This document shows, one piece after another, positions 4,333 through 37,882 of a DNA stretch of 64,000 bases. Numbering within the stretch: the first letter of the stretch is position 1; each line of letters opens with the position of its first letter. Origin of the DNA: a virus (Duplodnaviria > Caudoviricetes); IMG/VR virus record IMGVR_UViG_2974622993_000001, positions 4,390-68,389 of that record. The stretch is one strand, 5' to 3'. Position numbers and translations under genes: made by a program. The notes beneath the pieces are model-generated. The model ran no database searches and was not told the DNA's origin. It saw only the letters and a program-made list of their open reading frames with translations.

Positions 4333-4956
4333 TCAGTAGCCGTGGGCACCATTGAGGTACCCGTTAAGGCCATTAAATGCTGCACCTGGATCACGATGCA
4401 GCGGCCTTGGTGACCAGCATACGCCATCATTCCGGTGGCAAACTTCATTGACCGGAATGCGCCCCCAACGGTGAGGACCCCAGAACGTGTAGAACGGAAG
4501 ATTAGGCAGGCCAACGGTTTCGATGCCACCGAACCCTGCATTACCTGGATTACGGGGATTCCCGTAGAACCATGCAGCAGAATTGTAATTCATTCTTCCG
4601 TCTGTCTGCCACCAATCCAAAACGGTACTAGCAGCACTGGCACCCAATGAAATTGCGTACACTTCGATCCTCGTGCCCGGACAGCGCGCTCTCATGGCGT
4701 GCCCCTCACGATTCAACTTGTCTCGCGCCACAATTCGCGAATGATCACCCTGGAACACATCTGCTGGATAGGTGATGTTCATTCGGTTTGCGCGATTCCC
4801 TGGAACTCCTGTACTCCCTGAATCTCCGTTTCCCCCAACGGCATAACGCTGTACGACGGGACATGGTGCGGCACTTGCTGTTCCGACACCGACAATCATC
4901 AAGCCCGACGCTACGATCATAGCGAGCGCGATGAGATAGGTTGTCACTCTTTGCAT
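4333..4956 (-). CDS. secreted cutinase/PE-PPE-like serine esterase
   Basis: Signal peptide ending ASA|AP; CPGTRI..AISLG nucleophile elbow; YGNP; CHRNDGVC; C-terminal AH. Confidence 0.75.
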   Translation of the reverse strand: MQRVTTYLIALAMIVASGLMIVGVGTASAAPCPVVQRYAVGGNGDSGSTGVPGNRANRMNITYPADVFQGDHSRIVARDKLNREGHAMRARCPGTRIEVYAISLGASAASTVLDWWQTDGRMNYNSAAWFYGNPRNPGNAGFGGIETVGLPNLPFYTFWGPHRWGRIPVNEVCHRNDGVCWSPRPLHRDPGAAFNGLNGYLNGAHGY

Positions 4957-31997: not shown

Positions 31998-32367
31998 CGC
32001 TCCCAGTTGGCTAGTGCTTGCGTTCTTCATTATCATTGTTGCATATCAAGCCGGAAAGTTCCTTTCCGAAACCTCAGATTTCTTCGTGAAAGTCTTTGGC
32101 CCTGTTGGTCGCTACTGGCGTAGGGCAGGCAAGCGAAGAGAAGAAGCTCGTGCGGCAGCGCGAGGAGAAGATAGAGCCGAATTCGAAGATATGGCTCATA
32201 GGATCAAGTATCTACAGAAGCGATTAGTGGAGGTTAATTCGATTCTGGAAGAGCAAGATAACTATATCTTGTACGATACTAAATGGCACCGAGACCTACG
32301 ATTGCAGGCGGCTGAGTCCGATTGTGATCTGCCCGAACATGTTTCGTGGAAGTCTTGGAACCGTTAA
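31978..32367 (+). CDS. membrane-anchored coiled-coil protein (lysis cassette)
   Basis: N-terminal transmembrane segment then coiled coil. Confidence 0.7.
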   Translation: MNQIPDNAPSWLVLAFFIIIVAYQAGKFLSETSDFFVKVFGPVGRYWRRAGKRREEARAAARGEDRAEFEDMAHRIKYLQKRLVEVNSILEEQDNYILYDTKWHRDLRLQAAESDCDLPEHVSWKSWNR

Positions 32368-32373
32368 GGCACA

Positions 32374-32418
32374 AAGAAACCCCCCACCTGGGATCGCTCC
32401 TAGGTGGGGGGTTTTTCT
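32374..32418. terminator. bidirectional intrinsic terminator
   Basis: AAACCCCCCACCT/AGGTGGGGGGTTT 13-bp stem with flanking A and T tracts between convergent operons. Confidence 0.8.
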
Positions 32419-32422
32419 TCGT

Positions 32423-32779
32423 TTACTGAGCCGAAACCTCTTCTGTCTCAGAGGAATTCATGGCTTCCGCATATGCCTCAGCGAGTGAGGATGGAATGCG
32501 ACCAGTGGCGCGAACCTCGTAGCCGTTCTCCGCTGCCCATGCCCGAACGTCTGCCGACGTGGCACCCCCGTAAAAGGCAGTGCCACCGGTCTCAGTTCGC
32601 TTGTCCGCCTTGTCAATCCAGTTCTTGTTAGTCTTCTTGAACTTGGCGACATTCTCAGCTGACGTGTGCAGTACGTACGTCTCATTGTCGACCCGGATCG
32701 AAATGGTCTGTGCCTCATCCTCATTGAGGATGTCTCCGGTGACGTTGTCGACGAACTGCTTCACAAATCGTGCGGTCAT
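32423..32779 (-). CDS. lsr2: Lsr2-like protein (second copy)
   Basis: FVDNVTG..QTISIRVDN.TY; DVRAWAAENGYEV..TGRIP motif. Confidence 0.85.
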   Translation of the reverse strand: MTARFVKQFVDNVTGDILNEDEAQTISIRVDNETYVLHTSAENVAKFKKTNKNWIDKADKRTETGGTAFYGGATSADVRAWAAENGYEVRATGRIPSSLAEAYAEAMNSSETEEVSAQ

Positions 32780-32862
32780 TTTCTTTCCCTTTCATCTGGA
32801 ATGGTTTCTGATTGAAACCACACGAGACACGTTGGCTTACAACATGTCTCATGCTACCCCAA

Positions 32863-33234
32863 TCAGAGGTCTGTGACGCAGATGTATTGCCTTGCGGCAG
32901 TACCGAATACCTGTGCCTGTCCTGTATCCATGCCGATGAGGATCAGGTACTGCTGTGCTTCACTCACGGTCTCGTGTTCCATGATGGCACAGTAGGTTTC
33001 AGCCCATTCGAGGTATACTGCGCGGTCATGGGGACTCACGACATCCTCGTCAACGACGATAGATGAAATGAATTTGTCCTCTTGCGATTTGATCGGATCA
33101 TCCTGGTCAAATACCCCAGCACTCCATAGCACTAGGGCAGTGACCGCGACGATGGCCAGTACAACCACGAGCACAACCTTAAATGTGTTGCTACTCTTGG
33201 GTTCTACGTCAAACGTTGCATACATTTGTTCCAT
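32863..33234 (-). CDS. membrane-anchored protein
   Basis: VVLVVVLAIVAVTALVLW transmembrane segment. Confidence 0.7.
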   Translation of the reverse strand: MEQMYATFDVEPKSSNTFKVVLVVVLAIVAVTALVLWSAGVFDQDDPIKSQEDKFISSIVVDEDVVSPHDRAVYLEWAETYCAIMEHETVSEAQQYLILIGMDTGQAQVFGTAARQYICVTDL

Positions 33235-33322
33235 TGTTCTTTCCTTCTCTCAGTGTCGGTTCCGACTGAACCGTGACAAGGCACAAACCGAATTGGCTTG
33301 TGCCCCATCATGATTGTCGGAA

Positions 33323-33742
33323 TCAGTAGCGGTACAGGTCATCCCGCAGGAGGTCCCGGTCCGCCCTGTCGATTGCCTTGTCCCACACGAGGTCTGGGTA
33401 CGCCCTCGCGTATTCGTATACGGGGCAACCCCCGTCATCGTATCGGGCGATCAAGCTCGACTTGTGTCCGCCCCTGTCGGCGTTGATCTGCACTCGCATG
33501 AGCCACCACCGTGCCTCTTCGGATTCCGGGTCCCACGATCTGCGTTCGATGATTCGATCCACCGACAGGCCATCCTCCTCGATGGTGTCTGGACCAAAAC
33601 CCATGTGCGACAGCGCATGTCCCACGATGCACATCGGCTGACCCTCGTGGTCGAAGTATCTGGCTTGCCGATTCCATTGTGCGGGTTGCTCTTTCGCAAC
33701 CTCACGGACGGCGGTAGCCAATTCGATTGGGTCGATTCTCAT
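33323..33742 (-). CDS. hypothetical protein
   Basis: GAGAGAGGAAA SD; P.CIVGHAL motif. Confidence 0.7.
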   Translation of the reverse strand: MRIDPIELATAVREVAKEQPAQWNRQARYFDHEGQPMCIVGHALSHMGFGPDTIEEDGLSVDRIIERRSWDPESEEARWWLMRVQINADRGGHKSSLIARYDDGGCPVYEYARAYPDLVWDKAIDRADRDLLRDDLYRY

Positions 33743-33822
33743 TTCATTTCCTCTCTCTGTTCGGCCTGAATGACCGTGGCAAACCAACAAGCCGAAACTT
33801 GTTGGCCACCATGACTATTCAG

Positions 33823-34017
33823 TTATGCAGCGGGGTCTGGCTCCTGACCGGCCCGCTTGGTCGCCAGAGTTTCCAGCGCGTCAGCGATGCCGTGATCACC
33901 TTCGTCCCTGTATTTCCTTGCGAGAGCGTAGGTTTCAGCCGGGGTACGTTCCCGGTTCTGCAACTCACGTTCTGCCGCTTGGGTATTGAGACGCTTAATG
34001 GTGTCCAATCCGTGCAT
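33823..34017 (-). CDS. hypothetical protein
   Basis: GAGAGAGGAAAG SD before MHGLDT. Confidence 0.65.
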   Translation of the reverse strand: MHGLDTIKRLNTQAAERELQNRERTPAETYALARKYRDEGDHGIADALETLATKRAGQEPDPAA

Positions 34018-34091
34018 TGTCTTTCCTCTCTCTGTTGGTCCTAGTTGACCAGACGAAACACGTTGGGTCTCAACGTGTTCCATCCTACCTA

Positions 34092-34364
34092 CTAGGAGTT
34101 GGCTGCGGTCAGTACCCCAATCACCTTACGACGCTTGTCTTTTGCGTCAGTGCTGAGGCGACCGATGATTGCACCCGAGACGCCTTCTCGCGCATTGGCT
34201 TCCGCCACCACATTGTTTTTTGTGTAGCGCACGAAGAGGCTGGAATCCACCGGGTCCTTCTTAGTGGGGCGGAACTGAAAGAGTTGTCCCCGTTCGGTTT
34301 CCGATGCCAGTGTCCATCCTGCCTGAACCATGTTGTCCGACAGTTCAATTCGCTTGTTGCTCAT
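34092..34364 (-). CDS. hypothetical protein
   Basis: MSNKRIEL; ATGA overlap with upstream gene. Confidence 0.65.
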   Translation of the reverse strand: MSNKRIELSDNMVQAGWTLASETERGQLFQFRPTKKDPVDSSLFVRYTKNNVVAEANAREGVSGAIIGRLSTDAKDKRRKVIGVLTAANS

Positions 34365-34546
34365 GCCGCTTCTCCTGTCAGGCGTGCGCGCTCCTTGGTT
34401 GCACCTTGTCCCCGTCCGAGACGCCCATCCAACTCGCGGATTTGTTCCACATTGGATCGGTTGTCCCGCTTGGCTTTCCGAAGCGCTGCCGACTCTTGCC
34501 GACGTGTGCGCTCGGGATGGGTGCAAACCCTCTTCTGCTTTGCCAT
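34361..34546 (-). CDS. basic hypothetical protein
   Basis: Strong SD before MAKQKR; ELDGRLG.G.GA.KER.RL motif. Confidence 0.65.
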   Translation of the reverse strand: MAKQKRVCTHPERTRRQESAALRKAKRDNRSNVEQIRELDGRLGRGQGATKERARLTGEAA

Positions 34547-34633
34547 TTTCTTTCCTCTCTCTAAGTTGTTGCCTACCAACAACTTTGGCAACCCAACAGG
34601 TAATCCTGTTGGGCACCAGAACTATTGGTAGTT

Positions 34634-35035
34634 CTATTCGTAACCGCGTGTTCCCTCTTCGTTGAACTGTCCAACCTTTTGCTCGATGGTGACCCAAAAG
34701 GATATCGGCCCATCGGGTTCCGGTAGGTAGTCTGATTCGAGTCCACGTTCTTCCAGCCACTCGCATTCGTTGGCACACTGTAGGTTGAATTCATTTGCTG
34801 CCTGCTGTGTGTATTCGTCTGCGAGTTTCCGCACCCTGTCGAGTGCCGCCTTGGCATCCTCTTCGGTCAGGAATTGTTGGTACGCAACGATTTCCGTGTC
34901 GCTGCCCCACCAGCCACCCTCTTCCGGCCCCCCGTAGTAGGGAACGTTCTGATAGAGACTGACGTACCAGTTCTGTACGGAAACGCTTTCGTTGCAGACC
35001 TTTTCGAATGCGGCCTGAATGTACTTGTCGCTCAT
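34634..35035 (-). CDS. hypothetical protein
   Basis: Strong SD; YYGGPEEGGWW motif. Confidence 0.7.
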   Translation of the reverse strand: MSDKYIQAAFEKVCNESVSVQNWYVSLYQNVPYYGGPEEGGWWGSDTEIVAYQQFLTEEDAKAALDRVRKLADEYTQQAANEFNLQCANECEWLEERGLESDYLPEPDGPISFWVTIEQKVGQFNEEGTRGYE

Positions 35036-35114
35036 TATCTTTCCTCTCTCGTGGTCTGAGTTGACCATACCCAATACCGTTCTGTCACAACGATATTGGA
35101 TACTACCTACTCAG

Positions 35115-35306
35115 TCACCAGCACTGCTTTCGGCGCTGTTCAGGGGTCATCTTCCGGTACGCCGCCGATCCCACCTGAGACAGAAAGCCCGGTGAAAGTG
35201 GGTTTGGCGCAAGGGATTTGGTGAGTCGCTTACCGTGGAAGATTCCACGAGCCACGAGGTCCGATGCCATCTTGGCATTCTTCGCCCGATTTTCTGCTGC
35301 TCCCAT
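35115..35306 (-). CDS. basic hypothetical protein
   Basis: AAGGA SD; flanked by hairpins. Confidence 0.6.
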   Translation of the reverse strand: MGAAENRAKNAKMASDLVARGIFHGKRLTKSLAPNPLSPGFLSQVGSAAYRKMTPEQRRKQCW

Positions 35307-35385
35307 GATGAAATCCTTTCTCTCTTAACGCTTCTGAGTGAAGCGCAGCGTGGGCACAAACCATTTAGCTTGTGCCCCACTGTGA

Positions 35386-35739
35386 TTACTCAGTGGCCCA
35401 TGGGTTGCTGTAAAGCAACTTCTGGAGTTCTGCTGTCATCTGTGCATCGATGGCGCGAGACAGCGCTTCGAAGACCTTGGAATCCTGCCCGTAGCGTTGC
35501 GCCACAAGCAGTTTCGCTTCGGGGTCGTCGATATCGACTGCCGCACAGTCGAACACGTTGTCGTAGCTCTCGTGCGACCAGGTCATGCCCTCACGATTTG
35601 TGACGACCTTGCCGGATCGGACCGAATCCATTGGGCGAGAAGCACTTACGAACGTTGCTTCGTCTCCCCGGAAGTCAACGAGGGTGTCCCCATGGTTGAC
35701 TACGGAACCGTCCGCTTCCCGAAAGGTGATGATATGCAT
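35386..35739 (-). CDS. hypothetical protein
   Basis: Strong SD; flanked by hairpins. Confidence 0.7.
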   Translation of the reverse strand: MHIITFREADGSVVNHGDTLVDFRGDEATFVSASRPMDSVRSGKVVTNREGMTWSHESYDNVFDCAAVDIDDPEAKLLVAQRYGQDSKVFEALSRAIDAQMTAELQKLLYSNPWATE

Positions 35740-35818
35740 TGTCTTTCCTCTCTCTTGTGTAGGTCTGAATGACCTTGACTACCAAGGGCTTTTGAATTCC
35801 CTTGATAATCAGCTACAT

Positions 35819-36130
35819 TCAGCGTGCCAATTCTTCCCGGCCTTCGGCTATGCAGGCTCGTGCGTAATCCTGAACCTCCTTGGGGAGCATGGAATTCCAC
35901 GGTTCCCCGCTGGCCTTGAAAATTCGAATACCTTCTTGGACAACGGAAATGGCTTCGCGAATCATATACTTACTGGGCTTGTTGCCGCCACGGTTATTGC
36001 GCTTGCTGACCAGCCAGCGAACGTTCATGGCGTTGTTCCAAATGCGTGACACCACAACACATTCCAGACTGTCCTGGTCCATGTTGCCGATGGCAGCACT
36101 GGCGTTGTTTTCCAGTTCGTAGATGTTCAT
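35819..36130 (-). CDS. hypothetical protein
   Basis: Strong SD before MNIYEL. Confidence 0.7.
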   Translation of the reverse strand: MNIYELENNASAAIGNMDQDSLECVVVSRIWNNAMNVRWLVSKRNNRGGNKPSKYMIREAISVVQEGIRIFKASGEPWNSMLPKEVQDYARACIAEGREELAR

Positions 36131-36211
36131 TGTCTTTCCTCTCTCTAAGTGATTGAGTCCCAACCACTTTGGCAACCCCTCATTTCTGAGGGGCACCAGA
36201 ACCGTTGGGGT

Positions 36212-36460
36212 TCAGGGTATTTCAATCTGCGTCCAGTCCACCGAGATGAACTGATGCTTGAGAAAACAGATACGTTCGATCAGCGAACACTGCCGCCGAA
36301 TCAAGTCGTACGTTTCCTTTGCTCGTGAATTCCTGTTTGCGACAACGCCTTTTACGCTATCGTCGTAGGACGCTCCGGAAGCGATTTTGATTGGGTAGGT
36401 TGGATGGTAGTTGAGCCACCCGCTACGCGCTTCACGGCATTCCTCACAGAGTGCAGACAT
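36212..36460 (-). CDS. hypothetical protein (CxxC, C..H)
   Basis: Strong SD before MSALCEEC. Confidence 0.65.
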   Translation of the reverse strand: MSALCEECREARSGWLNYHPTYPIKIASGASYDDSVKGVVANRNSRAKETYDLIRRQCSLIERICFLKHQFISVDWTQIEIP

Positions 36461-36539
36461 TTTCTTTCCTCTCTCTTTGGGTCTGAATGACCTTGGAAAC
36501 CAACAGATTAATTTGAAACCTGTTGGCAACCAGCTACAT

Positions 36540-36809
36540 TCAGAGGTAGACGTACATCATCTCCACCAAGGCGTGGCCTGTTTCATCCTTGCGTCCGGTG
36601 GCTTGCTCCAATCCTTCGATGAGACTTTGAATCATCCGAACCTGTTCGCGCAGATGGTCTTTCATCGCTGGTGTGTCCTGGTCCTCTGGGTCCAGAGCAC
36701 AAATGCATTCCGATGTACGTGCCAGCAGGAAGGAAGAAACCCTATCTGCTGTCTTGGCATCGACTGTGACGCTGACGTTCGGGGTGAATTCGTCCACATA
36801 CATTGTCAT
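36540..36809 (-). CDS. hypothetical protein
   Basis: Strong SD before MTMYVDEF. Confidence 0.65.
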   Translation of the reverse strand: MTMYVDEFTPNVSVTVDAKTADRVSSFLLARTSECICALDPEDQDTPAMKDHLREQVRMIQSLIEGLEQATGRKDETGHALVEMMYVYL

Positions 36810-36884
36810 TGTTCTTTCCTCTCTCAATTGGTTCTGTGTTGAACCGTGGAAAGCCAAGGGACACAAGCCCCTTGGCCACCATGA

Positions 36885-37277
36885 CTACACAGATAGTCGA
36901 ATTTCTTTCTCCTGCTGGATATCCCAGATGGCAAGTTCGCCACGGGATTTCGCAGTTGTCATCGCTTCCGTGTACGAACGGATCACCTGCACCACATCGA
37001 AGTGCATTTGTCCGTCGTGTTCGTTCACCCAGGTACCGAAATACCTGTCGTCCCTTGCCAATTCATCGGCGTTGTCCTGGACGAAGTCGAAAGCGTCTTT
37101 CAGGATTTGGCCCCCGTCGAGGGTAACCCTGTGTGCCGGAATGACTTTGGTGTCTATGGCGAGTGCCACGATGAAACCTCCGTCTTCCCTCGTGTGCTTG
37201 CCGCTCTCGATGTGGTATGTGCTACCGCCTTCGCGGACACCATCGACAACTGCCATGATCACGTTGCTTGCAGACAT
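36885..37277 (-). CDS. hypothetical protein
   Basis: GGAGAGAAGGA SD; first gene of the leftward hairpin block. Confidence 0.7.
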   Translation of the reverse strand: MSASNVIMAVVDGVREGGSTYHIESGKHTREDGGFIVALAIDTKVIPAHRVTLDGGQILKDAFDFVQDNADELARDDRYFGTWVNEHDGQMHFDVVQVIRSYTEAMTTAKSRGELAIWDIQQEKEIRLSV

Positions 37278-37882
37278 TTGAAATTCCTTCTCTCCCTTTA
37301 GGTTCCGCCTTGAAACCACAAAGACCCCCGTACGTGACGGGGACCAATGAAGCCAAAAGGCTTGTGAGAGTGAGAGATTGAAAGGAAAGTGGGCACACTA
37401 CACATCAGCTTTACCTGTCCGGTCTCCCCCGTTGTGGTCGTGGGTTCAAATTTCCAGACGTTTCCTGACGCTTGACCATATGAGCGTAAGGGTATGTGCC
37501 CCAACAAGATTCCCGACTCTGTGGGCTTGTTGGCGCTGAAAGTGCTTGTGCCTCTTCAATTTTCAATGTTCGCGCTGCCGTCTGCGGAGGTTCCCAGCTC
37601 TGCGGGCTACACACATACGACAACCAGGAACCATTATGCCCTTTGACCTGCGGGTTTGGAAACCGGTATATCCTCCTGTGATGGGACTGTTATGGGATCG
37701 TTATGATTTGAGCTCGGTAGAAACCTGCTATGACCAGGCAAAACGCCCTAGGATCGATTCTGAGCGTGGCAACCCTAGTCCCGGCCTACTGGTGCCGGGG
37801 AACCCTAGAAGCTCAGCCTACGAGGCAGCTAGGGGGCAGCAATGGGCATTTGCGTAGGTGCAGGTAGGGCCAGTTTGGGCAT

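Follow-up and report, generated by a model that had tools for sequence, protein, structure and literature searches.

The question raised by this locus is why the genes of a single phage operon should be separated, junction after junction, by hairpins of the same design. The locus lies in a window of 64 kb (64,000 nucleotides, positions 4,390 to 68,389) taken from the complete 68,389-bp virus record IMGVR_UViG_2974622993_000001. The window matches the Gordonia phages Fryberger (96%), Guey18 (90%), and Keelan (74-78%), all of the genus Ronaldovirus and all isolated on Gordonia terrae 3612, and on this sequence identity it is assigned to a Ronaldovirus-group Gordonia phage. A leftward block of 13 small genes is flanked by the rightward lysis genes on one side and by a short divergent region on the other, and hairpin elements of 55-63 nt occupy 11 of its 12 gene junctions as well as the leader upstream of gene 1. 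These elements constitute a real, well-supported RNA family with two alternative folds, found in one operon of a small phage genus.

Architecture of the junction hairpins

The spacing of the block differs from that of same-strand genes elsewhere in the relatives, which mostly overlap or lie a few bases apart. Within the block, 11 of the 12 junctions measure 74-88 nt, and the remaining one, between genes 8 and 9, is an ATGA stop/start overlap. When each spacer was folded, all 11 formed one extended hairpin of 57-63 nt with 22-27 bp and a folding energy (dG) of -23 to -37 kcal/mol. In each junction hairpin, the outer stem is followed by an incompletely paired middle tier, which contains a mismatch, a bulge, or a small internal loop, and then by an inner stem of 8-15 bp. 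The module is ordered as a stop codon, an irregular hairpin of about two helical turns, a short linker, a purine-only box, and the ATG, with roughly 17-28 nt between the hairpin and the start codon. At all 11 junctions, the first nucleotide of the upstream stop codon lies anywhere from 5 nt 5' to 6 nt 3' of the nucleotide that opens the hairpin.

Much of this arrangement had been described in an original prediction made by a model from the letters of the window. Its account of an element at 11 of the 12 junctions and in the leader, of stop codons lying in or beside the outer stem, and of ATGA coupling at the only junction without an element (34361/34364) was borne out by the folding of the individual spacers, and the example it gave, at 36483-36543, proved exact. 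The length range it gave, 51-63 nt, was corrected to 55-63 nt.

A covariance model was built from 29 distinct copies. In the window, it recovered the 11 junction copies with scores of 45-86 bits (E values of 1e-9 to 3e-20), and the next match was the leader copy, a weak one of 13 bits (E = 0.18). No copy was found outside the block in the complete 68-kb genome. The four complete genomes hold 11, 11, 10, and 10 copies, all inside the block and on the same strand; the search of related phages that the original prediction had proposed thus returned a matching, block-only pattern in Fryberger, Guey18, and Keelan. No Rfam family matches the region (best E = 0.98, unrelated). Sliding-window and local-fold energy scans of the whole window were not discriminating because this GC-rich genome folds everywhere, and the covariance model was used in their place.

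The elements also bear on gene annotation in the relatives. Fryberger genes 68, 67, and 66 and Keelan genes 68 and 65 have GenBank starts 33-117 nt upstream of the purine box and ATG of their orthologues, so that the annotated proteins read through the hairpins. With these starts moved to the 3' side of the box, the junctions in the relatives measure 74-86 nt, and elements are present at all of them except the stop/start overlaps.

Base-pairing is conserved on the coding strand

The stems had been predicted to vary in sequence while keeping their complementarity, and the copies behave in this way. In the alignment, which was fitted to the covariance model and so somewhat favours structure, 24 of the 26 base pairs are changed on both sides; 164 both-side change cells were observed versus 62 +/- 8 after shuffling, a count that none of 500 shuffles reached, and the covariation score was 0.441 versus 0.22 for shuffled alignments and 0.10-0.19 with slid partners. 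Orthologous copies provide independent support for the pairing: relative to Keelan, the hairpin between genes 12 and 13 shows four both-side changes in its 15-bp inner stem, and the inner stem of the leader hairpin shows three.

Folding is also strand-specific. The sense RNA is more stable than the antisense in 12 of 12 window copies, by a mean of 6 kcal/mol (Wilcoxon p = 0.0005), with 45 G-U pairs in the sense orientation versus 21 in the antisense, and the bias toward the sense strand is seen in 34 of the 38 distinct copies. Such a bias indicates an RNA element and not a symmetric DNA site. The elements are paralogous and selected for base-pairing on the coding (RNA) strand.

This evidence bears directly on the alternative that the spacers act at the DNA level, each as a promoter with an operator, like the ESAS of Cluster K mycobacteriophages, or as a binding site for a phage regulator. 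In Cluster K, the SAS is an invariant box of 13-14 nt over the ribosome-binding site of some non-structural genes. Directly upstream of it lies the ESAS, an imperfect inverted repeat spanning about 50 bp, and the current interpretation of the ESAS is a SigA promoter with an operator (PMC3203893, PMC11373665). Both systems belong to actinophages and combine a conserved start-codon box with an upstream imperfect inverted repeat, so the layouts resemble each other (PMC3203893, PMC11373665); in the window, moreover, some 5' arms carry -10-like hexamers (TAGGAT, TAGTAT, TAGCAT), and the sequence conservation of the arms exceeds what pairing needs. However, these hexamers occur in one subtype only, no sigma-70-type promoter was matched on the coding strand at any junction, and a symmetric site would not give the sense-strand bias. 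The sequences of the two systems are unrelated, and the Cluster K copies are scattered, whereas those described here occupy all the hairpin junctions of a single operon. According to the authors of the Cluster K study, RNA pairing is not supported by their repeats, whereas the window copies covary as RNA, with a strand bias and without promoter hexamers. We regard a DNA-level site as quite improbable. The 50-bp motif of Cluster DJ was set apart, as it is a TATAAT promoter motif.

A second, alternative fold

A second fold was identified in the same elements, a feature that is new relative to the original prediction. In every one of the 36 distinct junction copies, the 3' arm (GGTYC type) can pair with the linker before the box (GRACC type) to form a 3' mini-hairpin whose loop is the 3' outer strand, and the leader copy has such a mini-hairpin as well. 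The dG of the mini-hairpins ranges from -4.7 to -10.4 kcal/mol across about 17 different stem sequences, and native arm-linker pairs are more stable than swapped ones (-7.7 versus -3.9 kcal/mol; Mann-Whitney p = 3e-12). The mini-hairpin and the outer and middle stems of the long hairpin are mutually exclusive, which gives the element a choice of two folds. In energy, the closed form comes to within 0.7-3.6 kcal/mol of the minimum free energy (MFE), and the open form is the preferred one in some copies. The hairpin between genes 3 and 4 represents a subtype with a clear three-hairpin alternative, and in longer context this three-hairpin form is the MFE structure.

Two further candidates were rejected. 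A mirror-image mini-hairpin on the 5' side was weak and inconsistent (-4.5 versus -3.7 kcal/mol), and a three-frame stop design in the 5' strand closed all three frames in only 2 of the 9 copies scored.

The ribosome-binding box and its accessibility

A purine run of the AGAGAGAGGAAAGA type and an ATG mark 12 of the 13 starts. The run sits 3-13 nt 3' of the hairpin and, at these 12 starts, either ends 0-7 nt before the ATG or runs into it. The exact AGAGAGGAA core occurs eight times on the coding strand, always in the block, and once on the other strand, in apparent coding sequence.

The unpaired probability of this Shine-Dalgarno box is 0.43-0.98 at the 11 hairpin junctions versus 0.20 at gene 1. 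Masking of the box followed by translational unmasking was rejected for the junctions, where the box is already open; only the leader is masked. A simulated ribosome placed at the upstream stop codon produced no systematic further opening, and, with the box open from the start, classical translational coupling of the unmasking type does not describe these junctions. In the leader, the MFE fold pairs a pyrimidine-rich tract with the gene 1 Shine-Dalgarno box across the leader hairpin, and this tract is identical in Guey18 and Keelan.

A terminating ribosome could act on the element in another way, by flipping it between its two folds with no cleavage involved. The ribosome at the stop codon would melt the outer and middle stems, and the 3' strand would snap into the mini-hairpin. 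The two compact hairpins would bring the next ribosome site to within a few nucleotides of the terminating ribosome, favouring re-initiation and even expression along the operon; in a variant, the switch would time access to the next gene. Such a mechanism is consistent with the stop codons at the hairpin base of all 11 junctions, with two mutually exclusive folds that both covary, with the small energy gap between the closed form and the MFE and the preference of some copies for the open form, and with the G-U-rich lower stems. It is at odds with a box that is already open and on which the simulated ribosome had no systematic effect, with a leader copy of the same design that has no upstream reading frame ending nearby, and with the lack of an element at the only clearly coupled junction (ATGA). 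A switch without cleavage is, in our estimate, unlikely.

The open ribosome site would equally be expected of passive insulators or stabilisers that remain uncut, block exonucleases and Rho loading on the 74-88-nt spacers, and keep the purine box single-stranded. Strong, conserved sense-strand hairpins, a ribosome site that is open at every hairpin junction, and a purine-only box that cannot pair with itself all agree with this explanation. It accounts, however, neither for the conserved second fold nor for the long spacers in a genome otherwise packed with overlaps or few-base gaps, and we consider it rather improbable.

The hairpins are not intrinsic terminators

The prediction that the elements are not intrinsic terminators was upheld. 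None of the 11 junction hairpins is followed by a T-run, and their tails are mixed or purine-rich. A terminator scan flagged only two structures: the leader hairpin, called terminator-like because of its T-rich tail, and the canonical bidirectional terminator at which the leftward block and the lysis genes converging on it end. The presence of a U-tract terminator at the block end shows that the phage uses such terminators where transcription should end.

Stable hairpins directly after stop codons could also be weak terminators or attenuators without a U-tract, setting an expression gradient along the block. The missing T-runs and the use of a canonical T-run terminator at the block end argue against this, as does the gap of about 17-28 nt between hairpin and ATG, which is too short for a promoter; the leader copy and the mini-hairpin would also be left unexplained. 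Attenuation is accordingly the explanation to which we give the least credence, and it appears very improbable.

Processing and stability sites as the favoured reading

That the elements function at the RNA level, in whatever manner, we hold to be very probable. For the manner itself, we favour, tentatively, a reading in which they are intercistronic processing and stability sites of the T7 RNase III kind that may also be recombination linkers like the promoter-early stem-loops (PeSLs) of T4-type phages.

The RNase III sites of T7 early mRNA are R0.3, R0.5, R1, R1.1, and R1.3, with R0.3 preceding the first gene. The window elements resemble them in shape, as irregular hairpins that span about two helical turns and contain internal loops, and in placement, with one before the first gene and the others between successive genes. 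After a single 3'-side cut, the upstream message would likewise keep a protective 3' hairpin. They differ in belonging to the phage of an actinobacterial host and in that every stop codon overlaps the hairpin base. To our knowledge, neither a covarying alternative 3' mini-hairpin nor an invariant purine box is known from the T7 sites.

RNase III is present in the genome of Corynebacterium glutamicum, an actinobacterial control from the same order as the host. In the enzyme of Escherichia coli, two helical turns are the main feature determining reactivity, and internal loops restrict cleavage to one strand, leaving protective 3' hairpins (PMC1540722). By the criterion derived from that work, all 12 copies have the geometry of RNase III substrates, with 20-27 bp interrupted by internal loops or bulges (PMC1540722). 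The mRNA-processing code of the original prediction is thus sustained as regards real, paralogous elements, selection for pairing on the coding strand, and a substrate-like geometry, and is retained as a tentative reading as regards cleavage.

Under this reading, the 12 elements would act in cis in the sense mRNA of a putative single leftward polycistronic transcript. The hairpins would be cut, most likely by host RNase III, as in T7 early mRNA, and a cut 3' of the internal loop would leave a protective 3' hairpin that may stabilise the upstream message. Once freed by the cut, the 3' arm would form the conserved mini-hairpin together with the outer strand and the linker, and its formation would release the downstream message with a structured 5' end beside an always-open ribosome site. 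Cleavage in the leader would separate the pyrimidine tract from the gene 1 ribosome site and so unmask gene 1. The near-identical boxes and related hairpins could in addition, whether incidentally or as a second function, serve as homology linkers for the gain, loss, or replacement of whole units made up of a gene and its downstream hairpin.

Processing is ranked first because of the helix length and loops, the leader copy, the behaviour of the hairpin as a 3' appendage, the terminal terminator, the mini-hairpin, and the potential unmasking at the leader. As the leader copy has no upstream gene, termination by a preceding ribosome cannot be a requirement for the function. Behind the last gene stands a canonical terminator in place of an element, so that every gene of the block would end in a hairpin, and the hairpin stays with the upstream gene, as expected of a 3' element.

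Several points weigh against processing. A phage-encoded RNase III is absent from the complete genome, and none of the public runs recorded as RNA contained this phage, so the single transcript and its cleavage are both things that we infer. The block promoter was not identified: a conserved stretch of about 110 nt upstream of the leader hairpin (37395-37500, minus strand), almost identical in Keelan where the flanking genes are only about 75% identical, holds only a -10-like TAGTGT and no clear -35, although it may contain the block promoter or a regulator site. Resemblance to a substrate is, moreover, weak evidence, given that the substrate specificity of the actinobacterial enzyme is undefined. 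Lastly, a ribosome-driven switch accounts no less well for the stop codons that overlap the hairpin base and for the small difference in energy between the two folds.

Gene gain, loss, and replacement at the elements

A comparison of gene order across relatives, also proposed in the original prediction, revealed that gain, loss, and replacement proceed cassette by cassette, with breaks at the elements, in the shared Shine-Dalgarno box. Gene 4 is missing in Guey18, where the gene 5 orthologue is preceded by the spacer that the window has after gene 3; what has been lost or gained thus comprises gene 4 and its downstream hairpin, a unit bounded by a 19-nt repeat of box and ATG. Fryberger and Keelan have a different gene at the gene 7 position, and gene 8 is also missing in Fryberger. 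The replacement of genes 7 and 8 begins just 3' of the box in both phages, and the hairpin between genes 6 and 7 is identical in them despite the different downstream gene. Keelan has one unique gene in place of genes 2-4, and Guey18 gene 2 shows 66% DNA identity between spacers of 93% and 99%.

In all five informative comparisons, the hairpin stays with the upstream gene while the downstream gene differs. Relative to Keelan, the spacers upstream of genes 8 and 10-12 are more conserved (84-93%) than the genes (61-83%), and the spacer upstream of gene 13 is conserved to the same degree as the gene. In Fryberger, where gene 8 is missing, a full element precedes the gene 9 orthologue. One breakpoint falls exactly at the gene 9 start, where the window has no element, which shows that the elements are not required for breakpoints at gene boundaries.

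Guey18 encodes an ERF-family annealing protein, a Cas4-family exonuclease, and an MRE11-type nuclease, which makes exchange at short homologies plausible by inference. No tyrosine recombinase (PF00589) was found in the complete 68,389-bp genome, whereas all 14 control genomes gave a match. The cassette-wise breaks fit homologous exchange at shared linkers, as with the PeSLs. These consist of a strong sigma-70-type promoter and a transcription-terminating stem-loop (PMC2839356, PMC4122927). Like them, the window elements are short, repeated intergenic stem-loop motifs concentrated among small genes of unknown function, and the breakpoints of gene indels and replacements that distinguish close relatives fall at these motifs, as seen in the gene 4 indel, the gene 7/8 replacement, and the divergent gene 2. 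Unlike them, the window elements have no promoter match on the coding strand at any junction and no U-tract.

The original prediction had raised attC-like recombination sites as an alternative. Its expectation of cassette-wise breakpoints at the elements was met in the relatives, and the mechanism was not supported. In integrons, attC recombination uses the bottom strand. The resemblance lies in the unit of gain and loss, one reading frame with an imperfect hairpin downstream that is about 60 nt long and contains unpaired bases, always in the same orientation. In contrast to attC, no integron integrase or tyrosine recombinase is present, the better-folding strand is the coding strand, and there is no conserved RYYYAAC/GTTRRRY core: the outer stems have at least 8 different sequences, of which only one subtype is GTTGGG-like. 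The crossover interval, too, is different, being the shared ribosome-binding box.

The elements might nonetheless be primarily recombination sites defining mobile cassettes, either PeSL-like, through homologous exchange and mini-circles, or attC-like, through site-specific recombination of a folded single strand. The precise absence of gene 4 and its hairpin between copies of the 19-nt repeat, the replacements that start just after the box, the divergent Guey18 gene 2 between conserved spacers, the conserved Keelan spacers, and the annealing and exonuclease proteins of Guey18 would all follow from such a role. On the other hand, the genome lacks a tyrosine recombinase, the outer stems share no core sequence, the coding strand folds better, and the gene 9 breakpoint lies at an element-free junction; recombination alone, moreover, requires neither the covariation of 26 pairs nor the second fold. 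As the primary function, we find recombination improbable, and the processing reading retains it as a possible second role.

Feature coordinates, gene content, and related sequences

The coordinates of the genes, hairpins, and associated features are listed in Table 1. Gene 13, the last of the block, is Lsr2-like. The other 12 genes have no Pfam family above the curated cut-off or match only PHROGs of unknown function.

Table 1. Genes, hairpin elements, and associated features of the leftward block (window positions)
Feature	Position	Strand	Length (nt)	Base pairs	dG (kcal/mol)	Model score (bits)	Remark
Pyrimidine-rich leader tract	37362-37386	minus					Able to pair with gene 1 Shine-Dalgarno box across leader hairpin (MFE fold)
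Leader copy, two-tier hairpin	37307-37361	minus	55	20	-23.8	13	Precedes gene 1; own 3' mini-hairpin and Shine-Dalgarno box follow
Gene 1	37277-36885	minus
Hairpin gene 1/gene 2	36833-36893	minus	61	25	-32.6	85.5
Gene 2	36809-36540	minus
Hairpin gene 2/gene 3	36482-36544	minus	63	24	-29.1	62.3	Example of the original prediction
Gene 3	36460-36212	minus
Hairpin gene 3/gene 4	36154-36214	minus	61	24	-31.3	53.4	Three-hairpin subtype
Gene 4	36130-35819	minus
Hairpin gene 4/gene 5	35765-35822	minus	58	22	-26.2		Missing along with gene 4 in Guey18
Gene 5	35739-35386	minus
Hairpin gene 5/gene 6	35334-35393	minus	60	25	-33.3	55.4
Gene 6	35306-35115	minus
Hairpin gene 6/gene 7	35056-35114	minus	59	23	-27.7
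Gene 7	35035-34634	minus
Hairpin gene 7/gene 8	34573-34631	minus	59	26	-33.4	66.2	Three-hairpin subtype
Gene 8	34546-34361	minus
Junction gene 8/gene 9	34361-34364	minus					Sole junction without element; ATGA stop/start overlap
Gene 9	34364-34092	minus
Hairpin gene 9/gene 10	34039-34097	minus	59	24	-32.4	58.2
Gene 10	34017-33823	minus
Hairpin gene 10/gene 11	33766-33822	minus	57	24	-23.4	71.4
Gene 11	33742-33323	minus
Hairpin gene 11/gene 12	33260-33322	minus	63	27	-36.8	72.8
Gene 12	33234-32863	minus
Hairpin gene 12/gene 13	32807-32867	minus	61	26	-35.3
Gene 13	32779-32423	minus
Canonical bidirectional terminator	32375-32416	both		19			T-runs on both strands; closes leftward block and converging lysis genes

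Contigs of three public DNA runs were compared with window positions 32300-37500, and one further relative and short metagenome pieces were found, with no joints. The relative is a 69,012-bp contig that is 97.6% identical across the whole block with unchanged gene content; the metagenome pieces, from groundwater and soil, cover short parts of genes 1, 5, and 13. A search of IMG/VR with the gene 1 protein found no wider relatives. A scan for the box and ATG returned 51 DNA stretches, nearly all of them single chance matches scoring on the box alone. In an unrelated uncultivated phage contig, 3300036652_001570 (IMG/VR; L030:40-606; GC 0.55), two consecutive junctions contain a similar two-tier hairpin (dG of about -42 to -45 kcal/mol), with a GAGAGAGAGG-type box and an ATG after each hairpin. 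The hairpin-plus-box design may exist outside Ronaldovirus.

Genes 3 and 7 are single accessory genes common to otherwise unrelated phages. Homologues of gene 7, 50% identical, were found only in Wildcat-type mycobacteriophages, and homologues of gene 3, about 43% identical, occur in some 290 PDRPv/Oline-type mycobacteriophages. In the Cluster B and Wildcat-type mycobacteriophages, these homologues lie in tightly packed operons from which the element is absent. A different repeated intergenic element was observed in Wildcat, in the operon of the gene 7 homologue: two spacers, upstream of genes 161 and 159 (L004:472-1154), carry 10-bp hairpins with nearly the same 14-nt loop, of the GGGAACTAGG[T/C]CAAAC type.

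Implications for actinophage accessory genes

The original prediction knew of no description of such elements in actinophages, and our search of the literature on Gordonia phages and actinophages likewise found none. Actinophage genomes contain many small accessory genes whose expression and exchange are poorly understood, and until now the repeated intergenic motifs of these phages (stoperators, SAS/ESAS, and the Cluster DJ 50-bp motif) were interpreted as sites acting at the DNA level. The family described here combines RNA-structure evidence, in the form of covariation, strand bias, and a second fold, with a fixed position between stop and start codons and with boundaries that coincide with gene swaps. 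An immediate practical use is the correction of start codons in the relatives that GenBank places too far upstream, through the hairpins.

If cleavage were confirmed, this would be, within the literature searched, the first T7-style mRNA punctuation described in an actinobacterial phage, and a tractable model, as laboratories routinely work with the host Gordonia terrae 3612. The compact parts, an insulating hairpin and a standard ribosome site, could also serve in operon building in mycobacteria and their relatives. A broader proposal, which we think has only a small chance of being right, is that the element is a two-state punctuation mark of the operon, flipped by a terminating ribosome or by a single endonuclease cut, and that the unit of gene and hairpin, delimited by the invariant box, is shuffled from genome to genome by the phage's own annealing and exonuclease proteins. 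If this were true, each gene would receive a standard 3' hairpin, a 5' mini-hairpin, and an open ribosome site, and one RNA module would both standardise the expression of the accessory genes of actinophages and delimit them as cassettes.

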